NCBI GenBank assembly: GCA_963840455.1
Contig: CAWIYV010000004.1
Span: 1 to 64,000, forward strand
DNA: 64,000 nucleotides
Direction of reading: 5' to 3'
Origin: Nitrospirota bacterium
Lineage (GTDB): Bacteria > Nitrospirota > UBA9217
The notes beneath the pieces were generated by a model. It searched no databases, was not told the DNA's origin, and saw only the letters and a list, made by a program, of their open reading frames with translations. The position numbers and the translations under genes were made by a program. The stretch's first letter is position 1. Every line of letters begins with the position of its first letter. Of this stretch, positions 3,889-46,542 are shown piece after piece.

Positions 3889-4851
3889 CTATTTGAGGAT
3901 ACCCTTCACGATCACGTCAACCGCTTCCTCGGGCGAGAGGCCGTGGGCCATGAGGGTCTCCATCTGGCGTTTGTCCACGCTCCCGATGGCGGCCTCGTGG
4001 GTCACCTTGGCGCCGGGGTCGTTCACCTGCACGATCGGGACCGCCCGCGCCACGGCCCGGTCCTTCACGATCTCCATGCAGTCCACGTGGCCGCGCGCAC
4101 CCTCTGCATTGCCCTCGGTGATGCCCGTGACCTCGGCTGTCGCGTCGTCCTCGATGGCAACGCGGGTCTTGATGATGCTGCGGCTGTTCTTCCCCGCAAG
4201 CAGGACCTTGTCGCGGATATGGATATCATCCGTAGCATGGCCGAAGACCCTTGCCGTCAGCTCGGCAACGGCGTTCTCTCCGGCCTCGACCGTGTAATCG
4301 ATGTCGAGCTTCCCCACCCTGCCGGTGGTCAGCGTGAAGTCGGTGAAGTACCGGCCATTCCTGCCCACCTGAACCGACAGTTTCGGCACGACCGTCACCC
4401 CGCCATGCGGACCGTGGTAGTGGGTCTCGGAGTACCGCATCTCCGCGCCCTCGCCTATGGAGACCGTGGCGTCCATGATGTGCCGGACCTTCTCTGCTTT
4501 CGGGAAGATGCAGTGGGCGATGAAGTGCGCCGACGCGCCCTCCTCGAGCTTCACCTCCATGGCGATCTTCTGCGTCCCCTTCTTGTGGAGGACACCAAAG
4601 CACATGTGGACCGGGTTCAGGAGCTTCACACCCTTCTTCACCGTCACCTGTGCACTGATGCCGTTCCAGGTCTCCCGCGCCCTGACCTCCAGCCCCTCGA
4701 CCGTGCGGCTGCTCAGGATGCGATGCCCGCTCGCGGCCAGGTGGGCAAAGCCCGCGTCGGCCAGGGCCTTCACGTCGCCGCCCGCGCTGCCGAAGCACGC
4801 GGTCAGTTCTTCGAGCTCAGACATAGTGGCACTCCCGTCCAGTGCAGACAT
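3889..4851 (-). CDS. SufB/SufD-family Fe-S assembly scaffold (SmsB-like)
   Basis: ARGHVDC and VTHEAAIGSVDK motifs; adjacent to a SufC-like ATPase. Confidence 0.88.
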   Translation of the reverse strand: MSALDGSATMSELEELTACFGSAGGDVKALADAGFAHLAASGHRILSSRTVEGLEVRARETWNGISAQVTVKKGVKLLNPVHMCFGVLHKKGTQKIAMEVKLEEGASAHFIAHCIFPKAEKVRHIMDATVSIGEGAEMRYSETHYHGPHGGVTVVPKLSVQVGRNGRYFTDFTLTTGRVGKLDIDYTVEAGENAVAELTARVFGHATDDIHIRDKVLLAGKNSRSIIKTRVAIEDDATAEVTGITEGNAEGARGHVDCMEIVKDRAVARAVPIVQVNDPGAKVTHEAAIGSVDKRQMETLMAHGLSPEEAVDVIVKGILK

Positions 4852-37245: not shown

Positions 37246-38364
37246 TTGAGCAAATCTGTTTTATCTTTACCGCAACTTACCGTAAAGGGAATTACCCTCA
37301 AACTGCCGGTGGTCCAGGGCGGCATGGGCGTCGGTGTATCCCTCTATCCTCTGGCCCGTGCCGTGGCGGTTGTCGGCGGGCTTGGCATCGTTTCGAGCGC
37401 CTGCCTCGACCGCGTTGTCACCAAGCGGGACAATGAGAAGATGGACGCATACCAGGCCGCTTACCATGAGGTCATGCTTGCCAAGGCACATGGCGGTTTT
37501 GCCGGCATCAACATCATGTGCGCGCTGGCAAAGGACTATGAGGCATCGGTCCGCGGGGCGCTGGACGCAAAGGCGGACGCGATCATTTCCGGCGCAGGCC
37601 TGCCGATGGGCCTCCCCGGTATCCAGCCGCCGAAGAACACGGCCCTGATCCCCATCGTCTCGTCGCCCCGGGCGCTCGACCTCATCTGCAAAAAATGGGA
37701 AAAGTTCAGCTACCGGCCTGATGCGGTCGTCCTCGAAGGCCCGCTTGCCGGCGGACATCTCGGCTTCAGGATGGACCAGGTGGACCTTGATGCGAATAAG
37801 TTGGAGAACCTCCTGCCGCCCGTCCTGGACATGGCCAAGAAGTACGGCGACATCCCGGTCATTGTTGCCGGCGGCATCTACACGAACGCCGACATCCGCC
37901 AGTTCCTCGACATGGGCGCGAAGGGCGTCCAGATGGGAACACGCTTCCTCGCAACGGAAGAAAGCAGCGCTTCCGAAGAGTACAAGAAGGCCGTCGTGGC
38001 GTCGAAGGATGAGGACATTATCGTCGCGACCGATCCGGGTTCGCCCTGCGGCCTCCCCTTCCGCGTCATAAAGCAGTCGCCAATGTATGTCTCCGCGCTT
38101 TCGCATCTCAGGAAACCCAAGTGCGACAAGGGCTACGTGCTCCTGAAGGACGCCGACGGGAAGTACACCAAATGCCCGGCCAAGGAGAGCAACGAGCACC
38201 ACTTTTGCATCTGCAATGGCCTGTTAAGCTCGGCAGGCTATAATCGCGACAAGGAAGAGCCGCTCTTCACGGTCGGCACGAATGCGTCGCGGGTCGACCG
38301 GATTGTGACGGTCCGGGCGCTCATGGAAGAGCTTTCCGGCAAGGTCCTCGCCCCGACGACATAG
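37246..38364 (+). CDS. Nitronate monooxygenase / FabK-like flavoprotein
   Basis: QGGMGVG, SGAGLP, EGPLAGGHLG, GVQMGTRF; TTG start inferred. Confidence 0.88.
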   Translation: MSKSVLSLPQLTVKGITLKLPVVQGGMGVGVSLYPLARAVAVVGGLGIVSSACLDRVVTKRDNEKMDAYQAAYHEVMLAKAHGGFAGINIMCALAKDYEASVRGALDAKADAIISGAGLPMGLPGIQPPKNTALIPIVSSPRALDLICKKWEKFSYRPDAVVLEGPLAGGHLGFRMDQVDLDANKLENLLPPVLDMAKKYGDIPVIVAGGIYTNADIRQFLDMGAKGVQMGTRFLATEESSASEEYKKAVVASKDEDIIVATDPGSPCGLPFRVIKQSPMYVSALSHLRKPKCDKGYVLLKDADGKYTKCPAKESNEHHFCICNGLLSSAGYNRDKEEPLFTVGTNASRVDRIVTVRALMEELSGKVLAPTT

Positions 38365-38488
38365 ACCGGCCGGGGAACAATCCGATGCACCGCTCCTGCG
38401 GGGCCTGTAGACCAGGGTCCCGCTATATTTTTTTTATCTGGCGGCCGCATCTCATCGCATCGTACCCGGAACAGTACACAAACATCCT

Positions 38489-39016
38489 ATGAGCAGATAC
38501 CGCATTCCGCAAAAGCCTGGATCAAAATACATCACCCCTGAAGGGAAGAAGCGGCTGACCGACGAGTTCTCCTATCTCTGGAAGGAGAAGCGGCCGGAAG
38601 TGACTGCAGCGCTTGCCGCGGCCGCGGCCGAGGGCGACCGCTCGGAAAATGCGGAGTATATCTACCGGAAGAAACAGCTCCGGGAGATCGACAGCCGCAT
38701 CCACTTCCTGAAGGGACGTCTGGAGGACGTGGTGGTGGTGGACACCGTCCCCAGCGACCAGTCCCGGGTATTCTTCGGCGCCTGGGTCAGGCTCGAGGGC
38801 GAGGACGGGAGCCGCGCTGAGTACCGCATCGTGGGACCCGACGAGTCCGATTCTGACAAGGGATACATCAGCATGGACGCCCCCATGGCGCGGGCGCTCA
38901 TGAAAAAGACCGAAGGCGATGAGGTTGCCGTGAAGCGGCCGAAGGGTGAAGCCGTGTTCACCATCACCAGGGTTTCGTATCGCCCTTTTACTCCTGAATC
39001 CAGGAGCGAGCGCTAA
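38489..39016 (+). CDS. greB: Transcription elongation factor GreB
   Basis: YITPEG, ERPEV-like KRPEV, GDRSENAEYIYRKKQLREID. Confidence 0.9.
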   Translation: MSRYRIPQKPGSKYITPEGKKRLTDEFSYLWKEKRPEVTAALAAAAAEGDRSENAEYIYRKKQLREIDSRIHFLKGRLEDVVVVDTVPSDQSRVFFGAWVRLEGEDGSRAEYRIVGPDESDSDKGYISMDAPMARALMKKTEGDEVAVKRPKGEAVFTITRVSYRPFTPESRSER

Positions 39017-39108
39017 CCCCGCAGTTGCTGAAGGTTAGCGAGCGATTAGACTAAAGAGTACTACCTTGAGGATCGAATTTCCCTGCAGATTGCTGCAGGG
39101 AGTTTTAA
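38994..39108 (-). repeat. Inverted copy of the two-hairpin element, overlapping the greB 3' end
   Basis: TGAATCCAGGAGCGAGCGC...CCTTGAGGATCGAA..TTCCCTGCAG..GCTGCAGGGAG is the reverse complement of 3756-3872. Confidence 0.82.
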
Positions 39109-39160
39109 TAGCATTCCTCCGCCGCTCGATTGACAAAACGCCGGCAGTTGGACTATCATA

Positions 39161-39364
39161 ATGCCCATGATCGAAACCTTGTTTTTTTTCTTCGGCCTGG
39201 GCTTCAGTGTTCTAGTCTATATCCGCTCCATCGTTCCGGGTGATCATCCGCCCCTCCGGAAGGTGATCTACACGATCCTGTCAACGATCGGCATCACCGG
39301 TATGGTGTGGCTCTGTGGGGTCCTCATCGCCCATTTCCTCCGGAAACTGGGCATGCTGCGTTGA
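39161..39364 (+). CDS. Small two-TM membrane protein (possible start 39167)
   Basis: Two hydrophobic segments; TTGACA-18-TATCAT upstream. Confidence 0.65.
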   Translation: MPMIETLFFFFGLGFSVLVYIRSIVPGDHPPLRKVIYTILSTIGITGMVWLCGVLIAHFLRKLGMLR

Positions 39365-39392
39365 ACCATGGTTCTCCCGGCGTTGGGAGAAC

Positions 39393-39424
39393 GAAAAAGG
39401 CACGCTCCCTTGAGCGTGCCTTTT
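39393..39424. terminator. Bidirectional terminator
   Basis: AAAAAGGCACGCTC-CCTT-GAGCGTGCCTTTT between convergent genes. Confidence 0.85.
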
Positions 39425-39456
39425 ATGCTTTCCGCGTGTCTCTCTTATTTCCTCGG

Positions 39457-40083
39457 TCACCTACCCAGTAATTTCACCTTCATCTCCAGCGGATGTTTCT
39501 GCGGGCCGCTCCCGACTTTCGCAGGATGGCCTACCGGTACCACGGCCATGAACTCTCCCTCGGGCTCGCCGAGGAACCGGAGCACCTCGTCCTTGATGAG
39601 ATAGAGTATCCCGAGCCAGACCGTTCCGAGGCCGAGTGACGTGGCAGCGAGCAGGATGTTCTGCACCGCCGCAGCCGAGCTCTGTATCTCCATGGTCCGG
39701 AAGAAGTCATGGGCCATCTCTTTCTCCACCTTGAACAGGTCGGTGCCGTGCCGGATCAGGTCGCCCGTGTTCGCCACGGCGATCACGACCGGCGCCGAGA
39801 GGATGCTCTTGGCGCCCATCCGGAGCAGCGCCGCTGCCGGCCGGGGAAGGGAAGCCGATTGTACTGTCACGAGCTGGGCCAGCTCGTTCCTCTTCTCGCC
39901 CCGAAGTACGATGAAGCGCCATGCCTGCTGGTTATGTGCGGACGGTGCCTGGTTCGCAGCGTGAAGAAGGACCCTCACCTGCTCTTCGGACACGTCGTCC
40001 TTTGTAAAGGTCCTGACGCTGCGGCGGGCCTTGATCGTCTTTAGGGCGTCATTGAGAGAAAGACCCGCATCATCGGGCAACAT
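39457..40083 (-). CDS. Nitroreductase family protein
   Basis: RRSVRTF, APSAHNQQAW, NILLAATSLGLGT. Confidence 0.92.
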   Translation of the reverse strand: MLPDDAGLSLNDALKTIKARRSVRTFTKDDVSEEQVRVLLHAANQAPSAHNQQAWRFIVLRGEKRNELAQLVTVQSASLPRPAAALLRMGAKSILSAPVVIAVANTGDLIRHGTDLFKVEKEMAHDFFRTMEIQSSAAAVQNILLAATSLGLGTVWLGILYLIKDEVLRFLGEPEGEFMAVVPVGHPAKVGSGPQKHPLEMKVKLLGR

Positions 40084-40125
40084 GGAGGACCTCCCTGGAG
40101 AAAAATGTCGTTGATCCTTCCGGGA

Positions 40126-40746
40126 TCATGGCACGAGCTTCTCGTGAATGAGCCTGTTCATGACGGCGTTCACGAACGGCCTCACCTGGTGCATGAGAGC
40201 GCCTTGGTACTTCGTCTCGGATATTGCCGACCAGACGGGCTTGCCGGTCCCGACGCTGTAGAGCGTCGTTTGCATGACCGCCACATAATAATCATAGGCA
40301 AACTCGCTCAAACCGCTGTCGGTCCATTCCGTGGTGGCGATGGTCTGGTCCCACTCCGCATCGAAGTTATGAGGAACAGCGTAGAGGCGGGTAGGGCTGT
40401 GAGTCTCTGCAGATACTTTCTTGATGAACTTCGCCGCAATGATCGAATCTGCTCCGGCCTCCCTGACCTTGGCTGCAACGATATCCCTGGCCGGCTGCGG
40501 TTCATCGGGCAGGACCGACGTGCTTGCTACGGCGTCGATCCCGCGGGCCTTCAGCTGCCGCACGAACTCATCCTCGAGCATGCTCCGTGGGCCCCGGTTC
40601 CTCACGACCCCGATGACAAAGACCTTTTTCAGGCCGCCCGGGAAGGCCGGGTCTCTCCAGGGGTCGATGATCTTCGTGCCCGCGCAGGCGGGCAGAAGTG
40701 CAAGAACGAGGAGCATCAGGATCCAGAACGATCGTCTGTTCTCCAT
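40126..40746 (-). CDS. Lipoprotein, hypothetical (DUF4136-like)
   Basis: Lipobox LPAC; KKVFVIGV; PVWSA..ET. Confidence 0.75.
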   Translation of the reverse strand: MENRRSFWILMLLVLALLPACAGTKIIDPWRDPAFPGGLKKVFVIGVVRNRGPRSMLEDEFVRQLKARGIDAVASTSVLPDEPQPARDIVAAKVREAGADSIIAAKFIKKVSAETHSPTRLYAVPHNFDAEWDQTIATTEWTDSGLSEFAYDYYVAVMQTTLYSVGTGKPVWSAISETKYQGALMHQVRPFVNAVMNRLIHEKLVP

Positions 40747-40906
40747 GGTTATCCTCCCTGGTCTACGACGCACACCTTCGCAACAGGACCACAGCAGAAA
40801 TGTGCTGGAGACGCCGATGATACGGCAACGGACCTCTTGCGTTGTTGGCCTCCTGAATGAAATAAGCGCGCTTAAGCGAGCATGCCCAGCCCGCTCCCGA
40901 TCGTCG

Positions 40907-41302
40907 CTATGCGTCATCCCGTCCCATCTCCCGCAAGGCATCCTTTGCGATCTCCCGCACGGCGGGGTTCGCGTCGTTCTGCAGTTCTCGCAAGGCATCC
41001 CGCGCAGACCGATGGCCGATGATCCCGAGCACGTTCGCCGTGTCCCCGCGGATGGTCGGGTTCTCATGCCCGAGGAGCACGAGGAGGCCAGGCACCGCGC
41101 CGGCCAGGGCCTGACGGTGCTCCTTCGCCAGTTCCTCGACGAGCGCCGTCGCGCCCAGCCTCACCATGATGGCGTCGTCACCCAGCAGATCGGGGATGAA
41201 CCGTACCACCGACGGGTCCTGCTTCATCATGGCGATGATGTTCTCGAGGAACCCCTTGCCCATGTACTCGATGAGCATTGCCCGCATTTCGTCGTCTTTC
41301 AT
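40907..41302 (-). CDS. HEAT-repeat protein
   Basis: VRLGATAL, IRGDTANVLGIIG, VREIAKDAL. Confidence 0.8.
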   Translation of the reverse strand: MKDDEMRAMLIEYMGKGFLENIIAMMKQDPSVVRFIPDLLGDDAIMVRLGATALVEELAKEHRQALAGAVPGLLVLLGHENPTIRGDTANVLGIIGHRSARDALRELQNDANPAVREIAKDALREMGRDDA

Positions 41303-41411
41303 GGCAATGGCAATAAGTATAGCACAACCCGACGATCCCTTCTCTCCCCTGTCCGTTCCCCCCGGAAAATTCCCTTGCAATGGCGGCGTCTTTCCTTTAT
41401 CATTGGTACCG

Positions 41412-41876
41412 ATGGAAGCAGCAAAACACGCTATTGAACCTGAGTTCCTGTCCCAGGCCCTCGCCCAAGGCACCAGACTCCGCATCGGCCAGATGAACAA
41501 GACTGAGCACGAAGGCGTGATCCGTGAGATCGGCCGTTACGAGATCAACGTTGAAGAGAACAACAACATCATTACCGTCCTGAAAAAGGACATTTCCTAC
41601 CTCTCGACGCCGGACCCCTTGATCACGGCAGCCGCGCCCGAAGATCCTTCCGCCGGCGCTGCCGCGGCGCCGGACGGAACTCCCGCCAAGCCGAACATCC
41701 AGCAGGAATTCCTGGACAAGGCCATCCGCGAGAACAACTCCCTCACGATCTTCCTCGTCACCGGCCAGCGCATCCGGGCGACCATTGAGGCCTACGACAA
41801 CTTCACCCTCCTCATCCGCGAGGGGGGCAAGCAGCACCTCTTCTACAAGCACGCGGTCACGACGATCAACCGATAG
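41412..41876 (+). CDS. Tandem double Sm/Hfq-domain protein (154 aa)
   Basis: C-terminal domain NIQQEFL...IFLVTGQRI...YDNFTLL...FYKHAVTT is Hfq-like; N-terminal domain EPEFL...EGVIREIGRYEI...VLKKDISYL looks like a degenerate copy; Ala/Pro linker. Confidence 0.8.
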   Translation: MEAAKHAIEPEFLSQALAQGTRLRIGQMNKTEHEGVIREIGRYEINVEENNNIITVLKKDISYLSTPDPLITAAAPEDPSAGAAAAPDGTPAKPNIQQEFLDKAIRENNSLTIFLVTGQRIRATIEAYDNFTLLIREGGKQHLFYKHAVTTINR

Positions 41877-41889
41877 AGGGACACCTGCC

Positions 41890-42303
41890 ATGGAAACCAA
41901 TCTCCTCGACAAGATGCTGAGCACGTACCGGTCCCAGAAGACCCCGGTGACCATCGTCCTGCAGAACAACGCACGGATCTTCGGCAGGATCGGGATGTTC
42001 GACAGCTATATCATCGTCATGGAGAACCAGCGGAACGAGATCGTCTATCGCCACGCAATTTCGGCCCTCCTTCCCTATGTTGCTGCCGAGCAGCCGCAGC
42101 CCCGCGAACAGAAGGTCGCCCCGGCACGGCCCGCGCCAAGGCCGGTCCCCAAACCGGCAAGGCCCACTCCTCCGGCAACGGCGAAGACCAGGCCGCCACG
42201 GCCTGAGCACAAGCCCGCCGCAACGCCGTCGGAATCGGGCCTCAACACCGGCATGAAGGAAGGCCTCCTGCGGTGGATGCAGGAACAGAAAGCGGGAAAA
42301 TAG
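41890..42303 (+). CDS. Divergent Hfq-family protein with Pro/Arg-rich tail (137 aa)
   Basis: NLLDKML...PVTIVLQNNARIFGRIGMFDSYII...VYRHAISA; tail ends LLRWMQEQK. Confidence 0.8.
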   Translation: METNLLDKMLSTYRSQKTPVTIVLQNNARIFGRIGMFDSYIIVMENQRNEIVYRHAISALLPYVAAEQPQPREQKVAPARPAPRPVPKPARPTPPATAKTRPPRPEHKPAATPSESGLNTGMKEGLLRWMQEQKAGK

Positions 42304-42304
42304 C

Positions 42305-43825
42305 ATGACCCGCCGTTCCCTGGCGCTATCTGCCCTTTCGGGGCTCCTGCTGGCGGCGTCATTCCCCAGCCTCGGTTATTCTTTTCTCGCCTGGTTTGCC
42401 CTCGTCCCGCTCCTGTTCGCCCTCCGGGACCAGACCGTAGGGACGGGCCTCTGGCTCAGCGGCAGCTTCGGGCTCGTTTTCTTCTGCGGCACTGTCTATT
42501 GGGTCACCAATTCGGTCCACTTTTACGGTCACGTGCCGCTTCTGCCCGCCTCGCTCATCACCCTGCTTCTCTGCGTGATCCTCGCTCTCTTCATCGTACC
42601 CTTCGGAGGAGCGCTCGTCCACATCAGGGCGACGCATCCGCGCTTGCTGTTCCTGGCCGCACCGGCCCTCTGGGTCACGCTGGAATATGCCCGCACGCAC
42701 CTGTTCTCCGGATTTCCCTGGGCGCTCCTGGGATATTCCCAATACCGGTCACTGCCGGTCATCCAGATCGCGGATCTCTTCGGCGTGTACGGCATATCCT
42801 TCCTGATCGTGCTCGCGAACATTGGCATCGCCGAGGTGCTCGCGGACCGGAAGAGATATCGTCCGCTGTTGGCCGCGGCGATCATGACGGCAGTTGTTGT
42901 CGGCTATGGATACTATCGTCTGAACGCGCCAGAAAGCGCAGGAAGCATCAGGATAGCGGTTGTCCAGGGGAACATCGAGCAGGACAAGAAGTGGGACCCG
43001 TCCTATCAGGGCGAGGTCATCGCGACCTATAAACGCCTTACGCTCAAAGCACTGGAGCAAAAACCAGACCTCGTGATTTGGCCCGAAACCGCCACACCCT
43101 TCTACTTCGGCGGAGGCGGCGACAACGTAAAATGGACCGACGACCTCAGACAGTTCGTCAGGACAATGAACACCCCCCTGCTCTTCGGCAGCGCGACCTA
43201 TGAGGTCAAGCCCGGCAGGGTCATCGATCTGTGGAATTCGGCGTTCCTGCTGGACCGTGACGGAGTAACCAGCGCCGTGTATCAGAAGATGCATCTGGTC
43301 CCCTACGGCGAATATATCCCCATGAAGAAGATCCTGTTCTTCGTGGAAAAACTGGTGCAGGCCATCGGCGACTTCCAGACCGGTAGGGAGTACACGGTCA
43401 TGAAGGTCCGGCCGCCGGCGGGAAATGATGTTGGCCTCAGCACGGTCATCTGCTACGAGATCATCTTCCCCGACCTCGTCAGAAGGTTCGTGAACAACGG
43501 GGCAACGGTCATGACCACCATCACGAACGACGCCTGGTTCGGCAAGACCGGAGCGCCGTACCAGCATTTCTCCATGGCAGTGCTGCGGGCGGTGGAGAAC
43601 CATGTCCCGATCGCCCGCGCGGCGAACACCGGTATATCCGGTTTCATTGACGCAAAAGGCCGCATCCTCGAGACCACAAGCATCTTCACCGAAGCGTATC
43701 TTACCCGCTCGCTTTCTCCTTCCACGCAGAAGACCATCTATACCCGCTATGGCGATATCTTTTCCTGGCTTTGTGTCATCGGATGTTTCCTGGCTGTCCT
43801 TCCCCTGCCGCGACCCAAACGATAG
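42305..43825 (+). CDS. lnt: Apolipoprotein N-acyltransferase
   Basis: QGNI, WPET, KMHLVPYGEY, ICYE, NDAWF, ANTGIS. Confidence 0.95.
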   Translation: MTRRSLALSALSGLLLAASFPSLGYSFLAWFALVPLLFALRDQTVGTGLWLSGSFGLVFFCGTVYWVTNSVHFYGHVPLLPASLITLLLCVILALFIVPFGGALVHIRATHPRLLFLAAPALWVTLEYARTHLFSGFPWALLGYSQYRSLPVIQIADLFGVYGISFLIVLANIGIAEVLADRKRYRPLLAAAIMTAVVVGYGYYRLNAPESAGSIRIAVVQGNIEQDKKWDPSYQGEVIATYKRLTLKALEQKPDLVIWPETATPFYFGGGGDNVKWTDDLRQFVRTMNTPLLFGSATYEVKPGRVIDLWNSAFLLDRDGVTSAVYQKMHLVPYGEYIPMKKILFFVEKLVQAIGDFQTGREYTVMKVRPPAGNDVGLSTVICYEIIFPDLVRRFVNNGATVMTTITNDAWFGKTGAPYQHFSMAVLRAVENHVPIARAANTGISGFIDAKGRILETTSIFTEAYLTRSLSPSTQKTIYTRYGDIFSWLCVIGCFLAVLPLPRPKR

Positions 43826-43918
43826 CGCCGGGCCGCCCGGGCAAGCGATCAATAAAAAAGCCGCCGGACCTCATGGTCCGGCGGCAGATGCTTCACTTCT
43901 CTCGCTGCCCGCTCGCTC

Positions 43919-44914
43919 TCAGAACCGGAAGGCCGCGTACAGCCCGATACCGGTGTTCGTCGTCTTGAGCGTTTGCTCGCCGACGGGGTCAATGAACTTC
44001 TCCTCGCTGGATTCGGCATAGATCGGCACCTCCATGCCGAAACGTTCGCTGAACCAGTACCGGCCGGCAAGCGTCGTCCGCGCCGTCGTTATCTTGTGCT
44101 CGTTTCCAGCTGCCATCCCGGTTTCTTTTTCCTCTTCGGCCTCGAGCGCGAGCCAAAGCGTGAGCTGCTTTCCGATGTAGCCCGCGATCTCGAAGTTCAC
44201 TGCCGCGATGTCGTACTTGGTCGTGCCCATGAATTCGACCTCACTTTTGCCGCCGCCGAATTCGAGCACAAGGCCGACCACGTCAGCGATCACTCCCCGG
44301 CCCCCGAAATAGACCACACCGATGTCGCGCGTCGCATCCGGCAAGCCGCTTTGCGTGTTCTCCGTCGATTCGCCATGGTACCGGAGATGGAGTTCCATGC
44401 TCGGGACAATGTACTGCCGGATACCCAGATCAAGCATGCTGTGTGCGATATCGATCTCCGGTTGAGAGACCCCGTTCACGGTCTGATCGATTGTTCCGCC
44501 ACCAAATCCGATGTTCAGGAACAGGCCGGTGTTCGTGGGAAAGAAATATTCGCCTCCGAACTGGAGAACGGCTGCGCTTGCCTTGCTGTCGGTTTCGAAT
44601 CCAGGGAACGTATTGTCCTTGTCCTTCGCCCCGATGAACACCAGGCCGGCTGATAGGGTGGACGGATGCTGGTAGAACTGCCGGAGATCGATGGGCTTGT
44701 CATCGTCCTTCAGGGGTGTGAAGAAGTGAGTGTACTGCACTGTGAACAGCGAGTTCTTCGTGTCGATCTTGCTCTTCGGGTCCGTGATGACGTTTGACTC
44801 CACTTTGCTCGTCGAGTCGCCCTCCAGGCCCACGACCACTTCATTCGACACGTCTGCAAAGGCCGGAACAGCAGCAAGACAGAAAAGCACTGCAATGACA
44901 ATCAATTTCCTCAT
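43919..44914 (-). CDS. Putative outer-membrane beta-barrel protein
   Basis: Signal peptide, alternating beta-strand pattern, C-terminal YAAFRF. Confidence 0.7.
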   Translation of the reverse strand: MRKLIVIAVLFCLAAVPAFADVSNEVVVGLEGDSTSKVESNVITDPKSKIDTKNSLFTVQYTHFFTPLKDDDKPIDLRQFYQHPSTLSAGLVFIGAKDKDNTFPGFETDSKASAAVLQFGGEYFFPTNTGLFLNIGFGGGTIDQTVNGVSQPEIDIAHSMLDLGIRQYIVPSMELHLRYHGESTENTQSGLPDATRDIGVVYFGGRGVIADVVGLVLEFGGGKSEVEFMGTTKYDIAAVNFEIAGYIGKQLTLWLALEAEEEKETGMAAGNEHKITTARTTLAGRYWFSERFGMEVPIYAESSEEKFIDPVGEQTLKTTNTGIGLYAAFRF

Positions 44915-45032
44915 GCGTCATACCTCCTCAGGGCTAGGCTTAAATGCAGGATGCATTGCGATGAAGATAGCAGAGGGGTCCGGGGACGTCAAGGTACTAT
45001 TCACCATGGGAAACCGGCGCAGCACGAACTGG

Positions 45033-45785
45033 TCAGAGCGTGCAGACCGACCGCAGGAATGCCGCTGACTTAAGCCGCTTGCCGAGGATATGGAGAGTGT
45101 GGGAGGTGAACGCCTGGTCAAGTTCCCGCATGATGTCCACGGAGGGTTTGAGACGGGTGACCTTGTCGAGGTCCATTCGGAGGGCATGATAATAGAAACC
45201 GATGGCGCCGGGGGAAAGCCGTATCTGGTCCTCGCCGGACGAGATGAGGCAGTCAGGGCAGAGCACGCCGCCCTTGAGGCCATAGAAGACCATGGGGCGC
45301 TCGGCGCCGCAGCCGCAGGAAAGGCACTTATCGAGTTTGGGCTGGAAGCCGAGGAGCGACAGGAACCGGATCTCGAAGATCCGGAGCAGGAACAGCGGAT
45401 CGACCCCTTCATTCAACAGGTGAAGGACATGGGCGAGCAGAAGGAATGCCTGCGGGTTCCGCTCTCCTTCCGGGGCGACCTCACGCACCAGTTCAACGAT
45501 GACGGAGCCAACGGCCATGCGGTCGAGGTCTCCGGCGATATCGAAATGCTGGCTGATGATATCGCTGGATTCTATCCGGATCAGCTCCTGGTGCTCTTTC
45601 TCATACAGGTGCAGGCGCGCGTGGGTGAACAGTTCAAGCCCCGCGCCAAAGCGACGAAAAGACTTCCGGGCATTCTTGGCAACGCCGCGGAGCCTGCCCC
45701 GGTCCAGGGAAAAGAAGGTGACGAGCTTGTCCGCCTCCCCCAGGTTCATGCTGCCAATGATGACGGCTTCGGTCTTGGACTTCAT
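45033..45785 (-). CDS. recO: DNA repair protein RecO
   Basis: GEADKLVTFF...GVAKNARKS; zinc finger CxxC...CxxC; near era. Confidence 0.93.
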   Translation of the reverse strand: MKSKTEAVIIGSMNLGEADKLVTFFSLDRGRLRGVAKNARKSFRRFGAGLELFTHARLHLYEKEHQELIRIESSDIISQHFDIAGDLDRMAVGSVIVELVREVAPEGERNPQAFLLLAHVLHLLNEGVDPLFLLRIFEIRFLSLLGFQPKLDKCLSCGCGAERPMVFYGLKGGVLCPDCLISSGEDQIRLSPGAIGFYYHALRMDLDKVTRLKPSVDIMRELDQAFTSHTLHILGKRLKSAAFLRSVCTL

Positions 45786-45804
45786 GATCGGAGCAAAATA
45801 GAGG

Positions 45805-46542
45805 TTACTGCATCCTGCGGATCCGCACCTCGACCCCCTTCTGGTCCCTCATGAGCGCAGTGAGCTTCGCGATGTCGGTCTCGCCAGTATGATAGGGATA
45901 AAGCACCCTGGGCTTGAACATCTTCGCGGCGTCCGCGACCATTTCCGGCGTCATGGTGTAGGGCAGGTTCATCGGCAGGAAAGCGATTTCGATGTTCTTG
46001 AGGGACTTCATTTCCGGGACATTCTCTGTGTCGCCCGCCACATAGACCCGCTTGTCAGCGAGGGTGATGATGTAGCCGTTCCCAACACCCTTGGGATGAT
46101 AGGGCTGCCCGTTCTCGCGCTTGCTTACCATATTATATGCCGGGACCGCTTCGACCGTCATTCCCTTGATCGCTTTCACGTCGCCGTTCTTCATGACCAC
46201 GCCGCCGCTCACCTGTCCTGCGCCGGCTTCGGTCAGGACGATCGTCGTCTTCTCTGTTCGGACCTTCTCGATCGCAGCAGGATCAAGATGGTCCCGATGC
46301 TCGTGGGTGATCAGAATGACGTCTGCTTTGGGCAGTTTGGCGTAGTCCGTAAGCTTGCTGTAGGGATCAACATAGATCGTTGCTCCGCCAAGCGTGAACA
46401 GCAGCGATCCATGTCCGATGAAGGTGATCACAAGATCACCGGCCGAGGTCTTGATAGTGTCCGGAGGGGACTGTTCCTGCGCCGCGGCCGCAGACGCAAG
46501 GACCAGGCTAAACAGCATCAAGGACAGGGAAGAGCGGAACAT
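45805..46542 (-). CDS. Exported MBL-fold metallohydrolase
   Basis: THEHRDH, AGDT, PYH motifs. Confidence 0.88.
   Translation of the reverse strand: MFRSSLSLMLFSLVLASAAAAQEQSPPDTIKTSAGDLVITFIGHGSLLFTLGGATIYVDPYSKLTDYAKLPKADVILITHEHRDHLDPAAIEKVRTEKTTIVLTEAGAGQVSGGVVMKNGDVKAIKGMTVEAVPAYNMVSKRENGQPYHPKGVGNGYIITLADKRVYVAGDTENVPEMKSLKNIEIAFLPMNLPYTMTPEMVADAAKMFKPRVLYPYHTGETDIAKLTALMRDQKGVEVRIRRMQ

Follow-up and report, generated by a model that had tools for sequence, protein, structure and literature searches.

Two neighbouring genes encoding three Hfq-type Sm domains upstream of lnt in a lineage-specific operon of Nitrospirota

Among Sm rings, the Hfq of bacteria is the standard example of a homomeric one, and the transition to heteromeric rings is commonly assigned to archaea and eukaryotes. 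What kind of assembly, then, could be made by two adjacent bacterial genes that carry three unlike Hfq-type domains between them? The question is raised by a stretch of 64,000 nucleotides from a Nitrospirota bacterium (lineage UBA9217; assembly GCA_963840455.1, contig CAWIYV010000004.1, positions 1 to 64,000), hereafter called the window, in which two co-oriented genes at 41412-42303, named here gene A and gene B, encode three Sm domains of the Hfq type, two in tandem in A and one in B, directly upstream of lnt (Table 1). A reading of the sequence alone had proposed three divergent Sm/Hfq domains at this place and, as a candidate, a heteromeric ring. The three domains are borne out by Pfam, by AlphaFold2 models compared with solved structures by Foldseek, and by profile searches. 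The two genes and lnt form a lineage-specific operon found across five families of Nitrospirota, and the pair is an addition to an ordinary Hfq and not its replacement, since the canonical copy is retained in the genomes that carry the pair.

Three Hfq-type modules and their divergence

The sequence-only reading had taken the first domain of A as degenerate, the second as canonical and the domain of B as a third variant. Against the Pfam Hfq family PF17209 (profile of 64 positions, gathering cut-off of 27 bits), the C-terminal domain of A (66.1 bits) and gene B (55.8 bits) score above the cut-off, whereas residues 1-70 of A taken alone score below it (13.5 bits, E 0.058, gapless over profile positions 4-59), as does the same domain in the genome-wide scan (12.3 bits). 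Whole gene A matches PF17209 in two stretches with 74.2 bits. Against the NCBIfam Hfq equivalog TIGR02383 (cut-off 61.7 bits), A is above the cut-off with 78.7 bits and B below it with 52.7 bits, and against NF001602 (cut-off 95 bits) both remain below, with 58.0 and 53.3 bits for A and B, respectively. The NCBIfam model NF010691 (176 positions), considered as a possible tandem model, was rejected, as each protein gave a single match, at profile positions 20-79 or 21-87. In public databases gene A is annotated with a single Pfam domain, under the name 'host factor-I protein' or 'RNA chaperone Hfq'. The three motifs by which the domains had been noticed are all present, VLKKDISYL at residues 56-64 of A, FYKHAVTT at residues 144-151 of A and VYRHAISA at residues 52-59 of B, and the coordinates of both genes and the spacing of 13 nt between them are as claimed.

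The N-terminal domain of A is a strongly diverged Hfq module lying outside the curated family model, as established by its fold, by a profile search and by direct Pfam matches in relatives. Modelled alone and template-free by AlphaFold2 from a 33-row alignment, it gave a helix (residues 10-19) followed by five strands, with a predicted local distance difference test (pLDDT) score of 81.2. In the Foldseek search of this model against the Protein Data Bank, all 26 rows listed among ranks 1-50 are Hfq chains, with template modelling (TM) scores of 0.74-0.89, the best match being the Caulobacter structure 6gwk (E 2e-5, TM 0.79/0.86, rmsd 1.3 Å over 62 columns); the domain thus models as an Sm fold, as the sequence-only reading had supposed. 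When its profile was searched against 1.84 billion cluster representatives, 16 proteins were found at E ≤ 0.001, among them two canonical single-domain Hfqs of 82 and 72 aa, matched in register (E 1.4e-4 and 2.1e-4). In four relatives of A the domain matches PF17209 directly, with E values of 6.6e-5 to 9.1e-4, and even in the best relatives its score is below the cut-off (21.3-24.4 bits). Residues E9, F12, G35, G41, Y43 and K58 are invariant in the 33-row alignment, and two conserved elements, the loop GQMNK.EHEG and the motif GRYE, are peculiar to this domain. In a four-way alignment, the invariant residues map to Q8, G34, D40, F42 and K56 of E. coli Hfq (residue list of PMC4174439). The identity of the domain to its relatives ranges from 46 to 83% across loci L006-L057, and that of lnt is mostly 55-76% (35% in L053 and 82% in L058); the similarity of the two ranges indicates purifying selection on the N-terminal domain.

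The C-terminal domain of A superposes on solved Hfq chains with an rmsd of 0.6-0.8 Å in Foldseek and stops right after strand 5, without a tail. It is joined to the N-terminal domain by a linker whose pLDDT is below 50 at residues 75-78 and 80-91 and which, in 33 relatives, is 19-33 residues long (median 28) and variable in sequence. The AlphaFold2 model of full-length A, built from the 33-row alignment, reached a pLDDT of 85.0 and a predicted TM score (pTM) of 0.77 despite about 20 disordered linker residues, and the pLDDT of the N-terminal domain rose to 95-96 within the full protein from 86-91 when modelled alone. The pTM and this rise imply that the two modules are placed confidently relative to each other, as judged from the model scores rather than from the coordinates. 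Among the Foldseek matches listed for the full model (at most 64 aligned columns), no solved chain contains two Hfq modules. In the ESM Atlas, the clusters nearest to A are Hfq-domain proteins of Nitrospirota. By language-model features A also has neighbours with lower scores, which serve as no more than leads; among them are 164-aa Pseudomonadota Hfq proteins and FljA-like repressors at 0.85-0.88, the latter including 'repressor of phase 1 flagellin' clusters (PF03614, about 135-160 aa, 0.85-0.87). In one FljA-like cluster 13% of the members carry PF17209, and as a further lead FljA-type repressors may be Hfq-related tandem proteins.

In E. coli Hfq, H57 belongs to the residues of the proximal pocket and the Sm2 motif. 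The canonical Hfq of the same genome was aligned with the three domains, with the E. coli site residues named in the portion of PMC4174439 consulted as reference, and conservation was read from 33-row alignments that include distant families. The proximal pocket (Q8, F42, Y55, K56, H57) is present in the canonical copy and complete in the C-terminal module of A, where its equivalents Q97, F131, Y145, K146 and H147 are all invariant in 33 sequences. It is partial in B (L6, conserved at 90% or more, Y40, Y53, R54 and H55), with leucine for Q8 and arginine for K56, and it fails in the N-terminal module of A (E9, Y43, L57, K58 and K59, of which E9, Y43 and K58 are invariant). At the rim (R16, R17, E18 and R19 in E. 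coli) the canonical copy reads R-K-E-K, the C-terminal module of A I-R-E-N, B R-S-Q-K and the N-terminal module of A A-Q-G-T, and at distal Y25 the same four have Y, F, V and G, respectively; the arginine-rim (R16, R17, R19) and distal-face (Y25, I30) pattern of Hfq is not found in the modules of A and B. The pore-facing aromatic is the sole site residue common to all modules. Identity to the canonical copy is 38% for the C-terminal domain of A and 40% for B, and the N-terminal domain of A is 18-24% identical to each other module. As judged from these pairwise identities and residue patterns, the three modules have diverged in different directions.

In gene B, the Sm domain is related to the C-terminal domain of A with 96.9% probability in hhalign, and its invariant residues are D7, L24, G32, D38, Y40, R54 and H55. 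The linker that follows was measured in 33 relatives with its boundary to the terminal helix fixed by script at 18 residues from the end; it is 42-63 residues long, carries a net charge of +3 to +8 and has a median proline fraction of 0.19. The C-terminus is formed by a nearly invariant motif of consensus MKEGLLKWMQEQKAAK, in which W129 is invariant even in families where the Sm domain is only about 30% identical, and in which M122, K123, G125, L126, L127, M130, Q131 and K134 are conserved at 90% or more in 33 sequences, distant families included. The hydrophobic residues M122, L126, L127, W129 and M130 lie at i, i+4, i+5, i+7 and i+8, that is on one helix face, and by inspection the motif is read as a predicted amphipathic helix. 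Such a strong constraint on a short peptide suggests a putative docking motif for a conserved partner. A six-frame regular-expression search of the genome found the motif nowhere outside gene B. The idea that the tail is the remnant helix 1 of a lost second domain was discarded, as hhalign gave it no support (P 0.3 for the tail alignment against the C-terminal domain of A, 0.26 against the Sm domain of B and 0.63 against the N-terminal domain of A). As a side observation, the B homologue of a family f14 locus (L074:2247-2972, minus strand) is 241 aa long, with an insertion of about 70 residues between Sm strands 3 and 4 that may be genuine or may stem from misassembly; the end of this protein is still a helix that contains Trp.

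A conserved operon in addition to canonical hfq

In a large protein database, 538 relatives of gene A were found at E ≤ 0.001. The 120 relatives listed are 148-195 aa long and cover 96-100% of the query, the N-terminal domain included, and one is named 'RNA chaperone Hfq [Nitrospirota bacterium]'. Among 65 loci from species-representative genomes, 55 (L006-L060) are relatives of gene A, checked by a tblastn script, and all but one of these come from uncultured Nitrospirota or Nitrospiraceae. The Sm domain of B follows A in 53 of the 55, the two misses being contigs that end at most 34 nt from A, so that the pair is conserved together, as the proposal of the sequence-only reading requires. In turn lnt follows B in 50 of the 55, the five misses being contig ends, and the order A-B-lnt is found in 50 of the 50 loci that are long enough. 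Frameshifts in B or lnt occur in a few long-read assemblies (L017, L045, L053 and L059).

A search with the N-terminal domain in 401 sampled genomes of the phylum found matches in 70 genomes, distributed over families f1 (58/63), f3 (9/12), f7 (1/1) and f14 (1/1); the other families of this sample gave no match (for example f9 0/76, f11 0/35 and f17 0/40). The operon is likewise present in a fifth family, f6, whose N-terminal domain is still more diverged and was missed by the query. The seven loci fetched from distant families all show the same gene order, with frames overlapping by 8-32 nt; the N-terminal domain was detected in L075 by the genome-sample search only, and in L072 the script found it only at E 0.96. 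In no locus examined did A or B occur alone. The tandem architecture itself may be wider than this lineage, since metagenomes hold other tandem Hfq-like proteins: P0132 (195 aa) and P0135 (169 aa) resemble gene A in having a degenerate module ahead of an intact one, and P0133 (152 aa) has two similar Sm-like halves, each keeping an FKH motif.

A separate canonical hfq was looked for in the genome of the window (4.03 Mb, 100% complete) and found on another contig, with 109 bits, directly after miaA (IPPT 288 bits). Copy numbers were counted in genomes at least 90% complete. Three Hfq matches are present in 35 of 37 f1 genomes, 6 of 7 f3 genomes, both f6 genomes and the single f7 genome, and every other listed genome has one match or none. 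The f1 exceptions are G131 (90% complete, 490 contigs), where the canonical copy was not found, and G206, where gene B is split. A separate family-level scan found a canonical copy of about 108-111 bits in 37 of 38 f1 genomes. The Hfq match is absent from f9 (0/98), f17 (0/45), f16 (0/15) and f10 (0/7), and the copy number thus ranges from 0 to 3 across the phylum sample.

Upstream of A, a sigma-70-type promoter (Table 1) would be at chance level if taken as a lone consensus match (1 found, 1.0 expected). Both hexamers and their spacing are nevertheless invariant in the 7 aligned relatives, with variable flanks, and of the 53 loci of L006-L060 that contain the start of A, 49 have the exact motif just 5' of the gene, the remaining four having an identical -35 and spacing and a variant -10. 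Five f3 upstream regions were inspected, and two of them (L071 and L076), like the f6 locus, have the motif at the same distance. Since the promoter ends 8 nt before the ATG, an interval with no Shine-Dalgarno sequence, the mRNA of gene A is probably leaderless or near-leaderless, which would be unusual for an hfq-type gene. Downstream, the stop of B and the start of lnt are 1 nt apart, and from this spacing A, B and lnt appear to be translationally coupled as one operon. With short gaps here and overlapping frames in distant families, A and B are distinct Sm paralogues produced from one operon. Two studies have RNA libraries with contigs that map to gene A; one contig of 180 nt bridges the A/B junction (41768-41947) with 0 differences and one of 151 nt bridges the B/lnt junction (42220-42370), and most of lnt and the promoter region are left uncovered. 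These contigs are a weak hint of expression, compatible with DNA as their origin and short of proof of a single transcript.

The pair thus stands outside the miaA-hfq context and leads into lnt, as had been noted, with a divergent HEAT-repeat gene upstream. The lnt reading frame has 506 aa and matches LNT_N with 138.6 bits and CN_hydrolase with 115.7 bits (Pfam), and it is single-copy, with one LNT_N match in the complete genome. Both flanking genes of the unit are on the opposite strand, and a gene of 331 aa followed by recO lies downstream. An Rfam scan of positions 38000-46000 at E ≤ 1 gave no match.

Table 1. Coordinates of the features of the A-B-lnt unit in the window
Feature	Position	Strand	Description
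Sigma-70-type promoter	41375..41403	+	-35 TTGCAA at 41375-41380, 17-nt spacer, -10 TATCAT at 41398-41403
Gene A	41412..41876	+	tandem-domain Hfq paralogue, 154 aa; PF17209 and TIGR02383 matches
A, N-terminal diverged Hfq/Sm domain	41433..41609	+	residues 8-66; Pfam, AlphaFold2, Foldseek, profile search
A, flexible linker	41610..41690	+	residues 67-93; Ala/Pro-rich, low pLDDT, variable sequence
A, C-terminal canonical Hfq domain	41691..41873	+	residues 94-154; PF17209 match
GAGGGA, putative Shine-Dalgarno-like element for gene B	41876..41881	+	overlaps the stop codon of gene A; read from the sequence
Gene B	41890..42303	+	single-domain Hfq paralogue with tail, 137 aa; PF17209 match
B, Sm/Hfq domain with YRH Sm2 motif	41890..42075	+	residues 1-62; sequence-based
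B, variable linker	42076..42237	+	residues 63-116; basic, Pro/Arg/Lys-rich
B, nearly invariant C-terminal motif	42238..42300	+	residues 117-137; consensus in the text
lnt	42305..43825	+	apolipoprotein N-acyltransferase, third gene of the unit; LNT_N and CN_hydrolase

Several observations concern the neighbours. The 331-aa reading frame (43919-44914, minus strand) is convergent with lnt, matches no Pfam family and has an N-terminus that resembles a signal peptide; a strong terminator-like hairpin at its end (43860-43885) has 11 pairs, 10 of them G-C, followed by a T run. The recO gene lies at 45033-45785 (minus strand) and is also the convergent neighbour in the relative L027. On the other side, a reading frame at 40126-40760 (minus strand), without a Pfam family, has an internal start that resembles a lipoprotein signal, with a hydrophobic stretch ending in LLPAC, and this putative lipoprotein gene sits about 1.5 kb from the sole lnt. 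In a distant-family locus where another gene stands upstream of A, the unit may read fur-A-B-lnt.

Possible assemblies of A and B and their alternatives

On balance, we consider it somewhat more likely than not that A and B act together in a specialised Sm assembly, which would constitute a second Hfq-type RNA-binding system. In the mechanism that we propose, three copies of A would close a pseudo-hexameric ring of alternating N- and C-terminal modules (A3). Such a ring is favoured because AlphaFold2 places the two domains of A together confidently (pTM 0.77), and it would follow from the usual behaviour of Sm domains together with a linker of 19-33 residues, ample to join neighbouring modules. 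The pockets of an A3 ring would be bounded by unlike neighbours, and the ring would offer fewer RNA sites, not equivalent to one another, and would bind fewer or different nucleotides than a homohexamer does. B, with its synthesis coupled to that of A, would act with A in one of two ways: (i) B would enter the same ring, for example as (N-C-B)2, which would fit the 1:1 output of coupled translation; or (ii) B would form its own ring and reach A or another partner via its basic arm and terminal helix. The sequence-only reading had offered an (AB)3 ring of the tandem protein or its co-assembly with the second protein, for which the confident placement of the two domains of A and the tight coupling or overlap of the genes give indirect support. 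We put forward a stricter form as a doubtful candidate: a single heteromeric ring would contain both proteins with all three module types, in the simplest case (N-C-B)2, and the basic tail of B with its invariant Trp would serve as an RNA- or partner-binding arm.

Several points weigh against a joint assembly with an RNA-chaperone role. The C-terminal domain of A and the Sm domain of B are only 19% identical, and this value, with 38-40% identity of each to the canonical copy, is equally compatible with two independent rings. The N-terminal module of A retains only the pore aromatic Y43 and K58, its rim and distal residues being lost, and hhalign relates it only weakly to the C-terminal domain (P 0.0063, in register, 6-60 against 3-57) and to gene B (P 0.0022). 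No natural A-B fusion was found among proteins of 271-2000 aa, a weak negative; the two hits that this search gave were rejected, both being gene A with an over-called upstream extension of the reading frame. The fixed link to lnt is unaccounted for by an RNA-chaperone role. Finally, three of the seven distant loci, the f3 loci L072, L073 and L077, lack the promoter motif and have a putative Fur-family gene on the same strand that ends 25-30 nt before A, so that the leaderless layout is not universal; in L072 this gene (3947-4357, minus strand) is of the Fur family (PF01475, 114.6 bits), confirmed by Pfam in this locus only.

The alternative that survives best is that of two independent specialised rings, an A3 pseudo-hexamer and a B6 homohexamer with separate RNA clients, the adjacency of the genes coming from co-regulation only. 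It has precedent in the known bacterial Hfq paralogues of Burkholderia and Bacillus anthracis, described as separate proteins in the consulted parts of PMC6200039 and PMC3474761, and it is in agreement with the score of B as an ordinary Hfq (55.8 bits), with the low identity of the C-terminal domain of A to B (down to 19%) and with the lack of a fusion in the size range searched. Co-regulation alone is, however, harder to reconcile with the strict adjacency of A and B in 53 of 53 long-enough loci, with neither gene seen alone in the loci examined, or with overlapping frames in distant families, an arrangement typical of subunits produced at a fixed ratio, and the invariant terminal motif of B calls for a conserved partner. 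We regard two independent rings as possible, on the unlikely side.

The link to lnt allows a second alternative, in which the pair would control or accompany Lnt and would not be an RNA chaperone, either because lnt translation is regulated from within the operon mRNA or because the helix of B anchors the complex at the membrane or on Lnt. This envelope-linked role is consistent with the place of lnt as third gene in 50 of 50 long-enough loci, in the distant families and in f6 too, with its single copy and its start 1 nt from the stop of B, and with a basic tail of B that ends in a predicted helix with one hydrophobic face, and it has a parallel in the cyanobacterial Hfq homologue, which acts through a partner protein. 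We consider it improbable, as the residues of the proximal RNA pocket in the C-terminal domain of A are all invariant, which argues for RNA binding, and as membrane-anchor helices are rarely so constrained in sequence. Least of all do we expect the N-terminal domain to be a decaying duplication relic without function, A behaving then like any ordinary Hfq that has been lengthened at its N-terminus: the domain's Pfam score under the cut-off (13.5 bits) and the loss of its rim, distal and most proximal residues would fit, but the domain is about as conserved as lnt over about 50 species-level genomes, contains loops that are peculiar to it and nearly invariant (GQMNK.EHEG and GRYE), models with a pLDDT of 95-96 and is retained in five families.

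The locus presents a natural, long-conserved intermediate, with a degenerate and an intact Hfq module in tandem, a third altered module on the same mRNA and the ordinary Hfq kept. If A and B do share one heteromeric ring, a bacterial Sm ring would exist with fixed non-equivalent positions, a counterpart of the eukaryotic Sm/Lsm hetero-rings that arose independently, and such a hetero-ring would coexist with homohexameric Hfq in one cell and be produced together with the sole Lnt. The locus opens the questions of how the asymmetry of the modules bears on the number and specificity of RNA sites, of whether the rings are separate or mixed, and of the role of the basic tail and helix. A connection of RNA control with lipoprotein maturation could lie behind two further features, the coupling to lnt and the promoter that looks leaderless.

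Comparison with known Hfq and Sm systems

With canonical Hfq (PF17209, TIGR02383), all three domains share the Hfq fold, as modelled by AlphaFold2 and matched by Foldseek for the two domains of A and as supported by sequence for the Sm domain of B, and the C-terminal domain of A retains the equivalents of Q8, F42, Y55, K56 and H57. In contrast to canonical Hfq, gene A has two domains on one chain and no C-terminal tail, and its N-terminal domain is under every family cut-off and without the rim and distal residues; B has leucine for Q8, arginine for K56 and a tail that is basic rather than acidic; and the pair lies outside the miaA context, in an operon with lnt. The Hfq-related proteins of cyanobacteria (PF21979, Hfq_1) likewise combine an Hfq fold with degenerate RNA-binding residues. 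The cyanobacterial homologue acts through a protein partner at the pilus base. Neither A (17.6 bits) nor B (15.4 bits) is a member of this family, both scores being below its cut-off of 27 bits.

The tail of B also has a counterpart. The Hfq proteins of E. coli and Caulobacter have acidic C-terminal domains with autoinhibitory tips, and in the consulted parts of PMC5606850 and PMC6561178 these are likewise disordered tails with a short conserved tip. In B, by contrast, the linker is basic (+3 to +8), and in place of an acidic patch the tip is a predicted amphipathic helix that contains an invariant Trp.

Multiple hfq paralogues are described for Burkholderia (Hfq and Hfq2), Bacillus anthracis (three), Magnetospirillum and Novosphingobium in the available parts of PMC6200039 and PMC3474761. 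These genomes likewise have more than one paralogue, with a second copy longer than the first, and in the same portions of both papers the paralogues are described as separate single-domain genes, the two Burkholderia glumae genes having distant locus tags. Here, in contrast, two paralogues lie side by side and are coupled, a tandem is among them, and the genome has the canonical copy as a third. In the literature searched, no Hfq with two Sm domains, no adjacent coupled hfq pair and no Nitrospirota Hfq was found, an earlier mention in a survey being possible.

The closest arithmetic is that of the eukaryotic Sm/Lsm hetero-rings, for which the hexamers Sm(F-E-G)2 and Lsm(6-5-7)2 are described in the excerpt of PMC3710371 consulted. 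Three module types taken twice would give a candidate (N-C-B)2 ring in the same way; its modules differ in being of the Hfq type, with hexamer geometry and the YKH motif, two of them covalently linked. Thus, hfq paralogy is known, and what is new here is the covalent tandem of unlike modules together with a coupled third module.

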